Shown here: positions 16,510 to 17,003 of the stretch, in pieces
Position numbering within the stretch: the stretch's first letter is position 1
Layout: every line of letters starts with the position of its first letter
From: a virus
Reading direction: 5' to 3' (one strand)
Length of the DNA: 23,240 nt
UHGV virus genome: UHGV-0143097
Position numbers and translations under genes: made by a program
Notes under the pieces: generated by a model
What the model saw: the letters and a program-made list of their open reading frames with translations, nothing else
Told to the model about the DNA's origin: nothing
The model's database searches: none

Positions 16510-16515
16510 TAACAC

Positions 16516-16527
16516 CGCTCTTTAACA
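16516..16527 (+). promoter_or_regulatory. nutR boxA-like sequence with no boxB hairpin following
   Basis: CGCTCTTTAACA 7 nt after the cro stop; no GC hairpin comparable to the nutL boxB occurs in 16528-16640. Confidence 0.4.
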
Positions 16528-16640
16528 GTCATGGTTAAAGGGCATACCAAGCAAGTCGATGCTGCATATGCAAAAGAATGCGCGCTGGAAGGTATGGCGA
16601 GAACGCAGATTATCTGGCTGAAAGAGGGGGTAATTAAGGC

Positions 16641-17003
16641 GTGAATACTTACCACATCACACTACCCTGGCCGCCGAGCAATAACCGCTACTACCGCCAT
16701 AATCGAGGGCGCACGCACATCAGCGCAGAAGGGCAGGCATACCGCGATAACGTCGCCCGAATCATTAAAGGCTCAATGCTGGATATCGGTCTGGCTATGC
16801 CTGTGAAAATCCGCATTGAGTGCCACATGCCGGATCGCCGTCGCCGTGACCTGGATAATCTACAAAAAGCCTCTTTTGACGCACTCACCAAAGCAGGTTT
16901 CTGGCTGGATGATGCTCAGGTCGTTGATTACCGCGTTGTGAAGATGCCGGTTGTCAAAGGTGGAAAGCTGGAACTGACCATCACTGAACTGGGAGATGAA
17001 TGA
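16641..17003 (+). CDS. rusA: RusA Holliday junction resolvase
   Basis: 120-aa protein [18 protein letters not shown] ... that I recognise as RusA of DLP12-type prophages; GTG start overlapping the stop of a short upstream ORF remnant. Confidence 0.9.

Follow-up and report, generated by a model that had tools for sequence, protein, structure and literature searches.

In lambda nin5, the deleted stretch of the rightward early operon lies between P and Q, and terminators between pR and Q go with it; expression of Q is then independent of N and the Nus factors. In this phage nutR, cII, O, P and ori are intact, and the phage is viable. Of the two parts of a nut site, boxB binds N and boxA binds NusB–NusE, and lambda nin5 grows without NusB (PMC3177189). 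Defective prophages that have become 'grounded' are a familiar pattern and have been reviewed (PMC6379469).

We examined a stretch of 23,240 nucleotides (UHGV virus genome UHGV-0143097; hereafter, the window) in which cro lies next to rusA. Phages HK140, HK620, mEpX2 and HK630 are 99.5–100% identical to the window in cI, OR/pR, cro, nutL and the boxA half of nutR, but in these phages nutR is complete and is followed by cII, O (with ori), P and nin genes. A prophage of E. coli ETEC H10407 (NC_017633, about 862.7–882.4 kb), its equivalents in CEA106S and phage Lambda_2E9 match the window in gene order and sequence, and the order shared with H10407 runs exo-bet-gam-kil-cIII-DUF2528-ral-sieB-N ... 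nutR ... 'ybcO-rusA-ylcG-quuD-porin-essD-rrrD-rzpD. The H10407 prophage is 94–98% identical to window positions 10487–14928 and 16536–20632 and has the same nutR boxA and truncated ybcO; it differs in having another cI and cro and in keeping boxB and a 3,869-bp cII-O-P-ren-ninB-dam-ninE-ninX segment. A prophage of E. coli F247 (NZ_OY754407) from the same prophage family has independently lost its replication region through a larger deletion, whose end points differ (DUF2528 to inside dam) and which also removed the whole immunity region.

[quoted passage not shown] In contrast to DLP12 so described, the element here has kept its repressor switch intact, together with N and nutL, and its rusA sits 131 bp from cro. 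Compared with nin5, the deletion here begins inside nutR and also takes the replication module. Sequence comparison with these relatives makes it very probable that the 131 bp are a scar, left when a lambdoid prophage of E. coli lost about 3.9 kb in one illegitimate (non-homologous) deletion.

Mapping of the cro–rusA joint

An earlier note on this DNA had remarked that only about 130 bp separate cro from rusA and had proposed a deletion through nutR and the replication region, with a breakpoint to be mapped by alignment against intact relatives. The open reading frames of the window give 131 bp between the end of cro at 16509 (ATG at 16315, TAG at 16507–16509) and the start of rusA (GTG at 16641), and alignment with intact relatives bears out the proposed deletion and maps its breakpoint to one base, at 16535|16536 (Table 1).

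Table 1 Features of the cro–rusA interval and of the surrounding element, in window coordinates
Feature	Position	Strand	Remarks
Contractile-tail fragment	5416–10505		Truncated sheath, tube, assembly chaperone, tape measure, bacterial PH-domain protein, truncated DNA-circularisation protein
N antiterminator gene	14263–14535	−	90-aa form as annotated in HK140 and HK620; Pfam N_peptide E 5e-15 (match 14263–14628)
nutL, complete	14847–14888	−	boxA GGCTCTTTAACA (14888–14877) and boxB hairpin TCCCGCCGAAATGCGGGA (14864–14847); identical to annotated HK620 nutL
cI repressor	15492–16208	−	238 aa, HTH and S24 self-cleaving peptidase domain, intact; HTH_3 and Peptidase_S24 on identical gene in L007
OR operators and pR	16209–16314	+	Approximate, by homology to HK620 annotation; segment 99.5–100% identical
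cro	16315–16509	+	64 aa, intact; corresponds to HK620 cro (L001 7836–8030); Pfam Cro on identical gene in L007 and L008
nutR boxA CGCTCTTTAACA, kept	16516–16527	+	Inside HK620 nutR annotation; same as HK140 'Nut boxA' feature
First 8 nt of nutR boxA–boxB spacer, GTCATGGT	16528–16535	+	Last left-parent sequence; gives chimeric ORF its ATG
Chimeric 37-codon ORF	16531–16644	+	nutR-spacer ATG, ninX-'ybcO spacer, 'ybcO remnant; no Shine-Dalgarno
Deletion joint	16535–16536	.	Blunt, without microhomology; left homology to 16535, right from 16536
ninX-'ybcO spacer, 19 nt, right-hand parent	16536–16554	+	Common to CEA106S, H10407 and Lambda_2E9; not to full-length ybcO of phage 82
3′ remnant of ybcO (DUF1364), pre-existing	16555–16644	+	PGAP pseudogene in relatives; contains rusA Shine-Dalgarno
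rusA, Holliday-junction resolvase	16641–17003	+	120 aa, full-length, intact; Pfam RusA (PF05866)
ylcG	17000–17140	+	Pfam Phage_YlcG on identical gene
quuD-type late antiterminator Q	17226–17609	+	127 aa, intact; Pfam Phage_antitermQ E 1e-53
nleH-type type III effector gene	22309–23190		293 aa, OspG kinase domain; exact protein indexed in 9,260 blocks of the collection

On the left, window positions 15480–16535 are 100% identical to HK140 and 99.5–99.6% identical to HK620, mEpX2 and HK630, and are found at 99% identity or more in 143 complete E. coli genomes; among the matches listed, all left-flank matches end at 16535. A longer segment, 13085–16535, is 99.8% identical to HK140, and the homology to HK620, HK140, ECE170 and H10407 alike ends at 16535, which in the HK620 nutR is 8 nt past boxA. 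Beyond the common ...CAGTCATGGT, the HK620 sequence runs on as CCTCATTCCCGCCGAAATGCGGGAA, which is boxB, and the annotated order past boxA is boxB tcccgccgaaatgcggga, tR1, pRE, cII, O with rep_origin inside it, P and tR2 (nutR at L001 8037–8082 and tR1 at 8082–8088 in the HK620 record, whose annotation is curated). The same annotation places OR3, OR2, OR1 and pR between cI and cro.

On the right, positions 16536–17010 have matches of 90–99.8% identity in 3,599 of the 5,426 complete E. coli genomes and in 67 phage records; for the ninX-'DUF1364-rusA-ylcG block of these genomes and of many lambdoid phages the identity is 93–99.8%. The start of this match depends on the type of relative, being 16536 in those of the ninX type and 16555 in those with a full-length ybcO, including phage 82.

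The H10407 prophage has both flanks in order, with window 10487–14928 and 16536–20632 both aligning to it. Since window position 16535 corresponds to position 8801 of the H10407 record (L019) and 16536 to 12671, the missing segment is 3,869 bp long (L019 8802–12670), and in H10407 coordinates the loss comprises boxB, tR1, cII, O/ori, P, ren, a tR2-like hairpin, ninB, dam, ninE and ninX. A three-way alignment with both H10407 ends shows that the joint, ...CATGGT / TAAAGGGCAT..., is blunt, with no microhomology and no flanking direct repeat. A microhomology joint at GGT was also considered and was rejected, as the window sequence GGTTAAAGGG has an extra T, which fits a blunt joining of CATGGT to TAAAGGG.

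The boxA-like site that the earlier note had recognized after cro is the boxA half of the annotated HK620 nutR. This boxA, CGCTCTTTAACA, lies 7 nt past the cro stop, fits the consensus CGCTCTT(T)A, is the same as the nutR boxA of HK620 and HK140 and equals the annotated 'Nut boxA' of HK140 and mEpX2. Its 11-mer GCTCTTTAACA occurs exactly twice in the window, on the nutR side and in nutL (14877–14887, − strand), where 0.37 matches are expected by chance and two were reached in 4 of 100 shuffled sequences; we take this core to be the rrn boxA consensus. The note was also right that no boxB accompanies the site. A window-wide search for the cognate boxB CCCGCCGAAATGCGGG, with up to three mismatches allowed, found a single copy, in nutL (14848–14863, − strand), and none at nutR, and the RNA of positions 16505–16650 has no significant fold (z = −0.70; 46 of 200 shuffled sequences fold equally well or better). 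Rfam searches of the window at gathering thresholds gave no nut-related family, and a scan of the window found no tRNAs.

Several other features of these leader regions were observed. The sole Rfam family match in the window is Lambda_thermo, the cIII thermoregulator (12583–12641, − strand, 88.5 bits). Between the N start and nutL, a 203-bp segment (14551–14753) is present in HK140 and ECE170 and missing from HK620 and H10407; it represents a small mosaic indel of the pL leader, in which a 41-aa hypothetical open reading frame is annotated in HK140. The annotated HK140 cII coding sequence (L002 9052–9417) begins at the ATG of the nutR spacer and overlaps boxB, and the same ATG opens the chimeric reading frame of the window. 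This HK140 cII start looks over-extended, because cII is annotated about 85 nt further downstream in HK620 and ECE170.

The reading frame upstream of rusA

The 37 codons before rusA had been read in the earlier note as the 3′ end of an open reading frame whose stop overlaps the rusA start, and as a remnant of the gene normally preceding rusA. The frame (16531–16644) does end in this manner, with TGA and GTG overlapping as GTGA, and the remnant is the 3′ part of ybcO; it did not originate in the present deletion, as ybcO is already truncated in relatives that look replication-competent. Residues 6–37 of the frame are 88% identical to residues 65–96 of phage 82 Orf96/YbcO (BLASTP). The match to the Pfam YbcO profile (PF07102) is confined to positions 60–92 of 92, with an E value of 6.9e-4 and 20 bits against a cut-off of 29.9, and the 37-residue product is not a full-length YbcO/DUF1364 protein, which has about 92–96 residues and a Cys/His-rich N-terminal two thirds.

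In H10407, CEA106S and F247 the remnant is a PGAP pseudogene ('missing N-terminus') downstream of ninX, and a truncated ybcO fragment also lies downstream of ninX in phage Lambda_2E9. H10407 and CEA106S carry the truncated ybcO alongside O and P, and F247 has it after losing O and P. Because the 19-nt ninX-side spacer (16536–16554) is kept upstream of the remnant in the window, the ybcO truncation is older than the deletion, widely inherited and separate from it. A coincidence of the right end of the deletion with the ybcO truncation point, whether as a hotspot or because the deletion made the remnant, was rejected on account of the 19 nt that lie between them. The truncated 3′ fragment was seen in each ninX-type relative examined (for example, L019 12690–12779, L003 12020–12109 and L018 6754–6843).

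The 37-codon frame is probably a fusion artefact and not a gene. Its ATG at 16531 derives from the nutR spacer, is in frame by chance and has no Shine-Dalgarno sequence, and the exact product of the frame is known from two small contigs only. In H10407 this frame lacks a start codon, and stops close it 42 codons upstream of its end. The earlier note had allowed for a complete small gene conserved in relatives, but the frame in those relatives is a PGAP pseudogene that lacks a start.

What is left of ybcO before rusA is old and widely inherited, and bears the rusA ribosome-binding site, whose Shine-Dalgarno sequence GAGGGGG (16624–16630) lies inside it. Survival of exactly this fragment may be due to the presence within it of the rusA Shine-Dalgarno sequence and of the stop/start overlap. 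For annotation, the consequence is that the 37-codon frame should get no gene call.

Replication and rightward transcription

Replication functions were sought by tblastn with queries taken from HK620, HK140, ECE170 and H10407, and in the window cII, O, P, a DnaB-type helicase, ren, ninB, dam, ninE and ninX all gave E > 0.1. Pfam and PHROG scans of the other open reading frames of the window revealed no replication protein. To the left of the window lies host chromosome, with a TIR-domain gene and then icd, rluE, nudJ, mnmA, hflD, purB and phoPQ. On the right side a related scaffold ends about 60 bp past nleH, and in relatives nleH is followed only by cif, small cargo genes, sometimes IS66 and nleG, and host genes.

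In the collection, 1,286 blocks contain the exact RusA protein, which has a Pfam RusA match; in all ten of the long contigs listed with this protein, Phage_rep_O and lambda_P lie a few kb upstream of its gene. The arrangement in the window is thereby confirmed as derived. We infer that the element is incapable of autonomous replication, with O, P and the origin (which is inside O in HK620) missing. Proteins made by another prophage would not restore replication in trans, because the origin acts in cis and is also lost.

Rightward antitermination was thought in the earlier note to be possibly impaired. This is formally so, since the truncated nutR has no boxB and N could not be loaded there, while nutL would still be usable by N. 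The impairment is probably moot, as tR1 (from the HK620 annotation) and the tR2-like hairpin both fall in the deleted span, so that the loss of boxB probably has little effect. The latter is a strong hairpin, AGGCCTGC...GCAGGCCTTTTTATTT, located at L019 11040–11063 in H10407. From pR to quuD no strong intrinsic terminator is left, with only weak terminator-like consensus matches between cro and quuD, and the 131-nt spacer does not resemble a Rho-loading region, given its 38 G against 24 C residues.

The features that remain intact in the element are cI, cro, N, nutL, rusA, quuD, essD, rrrD, rzpD/Rz1 and bor. The 127-aa quuD gene is also called in L008 and L030, and a GGAG Shine-Dalgarno sequence precedes its ATG at 17226. 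On cleavage of cI, pR would read cro-rusA-ylcG-quuD as one short operon without N, and Q would then switch on the intact lysis genes essD-rrrD-rzpD; quuD, essD, rrrD, rzpD/Rz1 and bor would be the only late functions remaining. These expected consequences (no replication, N-independent read-through and Q-driven lysis) are drawn from the annotation of relatives and from simple consensus scans.

The composite element and the origin of the scar

The window is made up of pieces of decayed prophages at the icd locus and has at least four deletion joints, of which the cro–rusA scar is one. The element combines lambdoid gene order with the loss of lytic modules, as is characteristic of a defective lambdoid prophage, and in place of the lambda-type int/xis region stands a truncated tail module from another prophage. 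Positions 1–5394 match an icd-site (e14-site) prophage, that of GCA_017312945.1, at 100% identity; its early region, with a replication gene of its own, is intact there and deleted in the window. At about 5392–5394 the repressor region abuts a 5′-truncated tail-sheath gene, and at about 10487 the tail block is fused tail-to-tail to the lambda-type exo. The joint at about 10487 seems older than the repressor/sheath deletion, because it is also present in GCA_052990205.1, where the upstream head and tail genes are intact. A second scar, at 21976–21979, lies just before nleH: here the first 72 nt of nohD/Nu1, the gene for the terminase small subunit, run into the 3′ end of a tail-fibre gene, and the two share 4 bp. 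This scar (within 21908–22309) removes all packaging, head and tail genes, and the resulting 60-aa fusion frame is on record in three contigs of 50–200 kb.

The left 5.4 kb contain a 375-aa integrase gene, xis, YfdR/Q/P-like genes and a second S24 repressor gene (4445–5119). Within it, about 430 bp (3379–3812) gave no family match; this segment has long overlapping frames in several reading frames and lies between a YfdP-like gene (3013–3378, − strand) and a small gene on the + strand. For the DNA-circularisation gene, the 441-aa form had no record in our look-up and a 425-aa form is on record. Just left of the window, in the integrase–icd interval, a gene for an 822-aa TIR-domain protein (L037 11351–13819) is present in all eight contigs listed, and may be defence-type cargo at the prophage end. 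At the other end, nleH among the relatives listed stands after lambdoid tail-fibre genes and before cif, a few kb from ybhB and bio genes.

The cro–rusA joint is real and is limited to a narrow lineage. It is present, with 100% identity across the joint, in the run assemblies SRR4408039 and SRR4408084 (contigs of 2.4 and 1.9 kb), and an ENA metagenome scaffold of 127 kb (ERZ28651082) shows this arrangement too, differing by 6 SNPs in 22.5 kb. None of the 5,426 complete E. coli genomes has the joint and no phage record searched spans it, and the exact 26-mer junction CTTTAACAGTCATGGTTAAAGGGCAT is absent from GTDB species representatives, JGI metagenome contigs and IMG/VR; these absences indicate a narrow lineage and give no hint that the junction has spread or recurred. 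A chimeric contig that merged two prophages at a repeat might be suspected, as repeats abound in lambdoid prophages, which are often misassembled, and the related long contig is a metagenome scaffold. We regard such a chimera as extremely unlikely: nothing is shared at the joint that an assembler could collapse, so that assembly could not have made it, and the joint occurs in two independent run assemblies as well as in a scaffold that has SNP differences elsewhere.

In the reading that we favour, a single deletion, the parent would have carried HK140/HK620-type immunity followed by cII-O(ori)-P-ren-ninB-dam-ninE-ninX-'ybcO-rusA-ylcG-quuD, and the deletion would run from 8 nt past the nutR boxA to a point in the ninX-'ybcO spacer 19 nt before the truncated ybcO. 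This parent is reconstructed from two relatives and not observed, since no sequenced relative joins exact HK140-type immunity to the ninX-'ybcO block. A single parent is nonetheless plausible, because HK140 and H10407 share nutR boxA/boxB and the cII-O-P-ren-ninB-dam-ninE block at about 97.6% identity. It is possible, though unlikely, that the joint arose instead by illegitimate recombination between two genomes, for example an incoming phage with HK140/HK620 immunity and a resident H10407/DLP12-like prophage. The best matches of the two flanks do come from different genomes (HK140 and ECE170 at 99.6–100% on the left, CEA106S at 99.8% on the right), and the element contains other inter-prophage joints, such as that between the tail module of the icd-site prophage and the lambda-type exo. 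However, H10407 has lambda-type flanks on both sides in normal order and is about 97.6% identical to HK140 from boxA to ninE, and one mosaic parent with one deletion is the simpler account. A two-step origin or inter-prophage recombination would yield an identical sequence, and outcome and consequences are equal either way.

We consider it very unlikely that pR-cro-rusA-ylcG-quuD is a selected, domesticated module, providing an SOS-inducible resolvase, a repressor-controlled lysis switch or both; a variant holds that the kept rrn-consensus boxA might protect against Rho without N. Similarly doubtful is the more specific proposal that the loss of boxB, tR1 and tR2, with boxA kept, made a cI-repressed, SOS-inducible and N-independent operon that was selected in the lineage. 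If true, such an operon would supply the host with a Holliday-junction resolvase inducible by damage and with a lysis switch gated by the repressor. That cI, cro, N, nutL, rusA, quuD, essD, rrrD, rzpD and bor are intact despite four deletions, and that the junction occurs in several assemblies differing by SNPs, would fit such selection, as would the agreement of boxA with the GCTCTTTAACA core, presumably the rrn consensus. Yet the junction is absent from the complete E. coli genomes, GTDB representatives, JGI and IMG/VR, and flanks that are 99.8–100% identical to phages suggest that the event is recent, so that selection has had little time to act. This narrow distribution and near-identity to phages argue that the deletion was recent and neutral. 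A viable alternative lambdoid architecture, in which the 37-codon frame is a genuine small gene and replication functions lie elsewhere in the phage, has a negligible probability and is already largely refuted. The frame is open, in phase with an ATG, and has the usual stop/start overlap with rusA, but that ATG has no Shine-Dalgarno sequence, the frame in relatives is a startless PGAP pseudogene and the exact product comes from two small contigs only. Replication genes are absent from the window, the joint of Nu1' with the tail-fibre 3′ end (21976–21979) has cost the element its packaging, head and tail genes as well, and host DNA lies on the left of the window.

The overall picture is one of ordinary prophage decay, with a deletion scar of a well-known kind. 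The element with nleH is a grounded, presumably non-replicating composite prophage, and the finding mostly matters for annotation. The single deletion that we favour is a clean natural counterpart of nin5, larger in extent, which leaves repressor-controlled pR almost directly wired to rusA and the late antiterminator. It opens no new question, and the scar could serve to test N-independent read-through and the effects of boxA alone.
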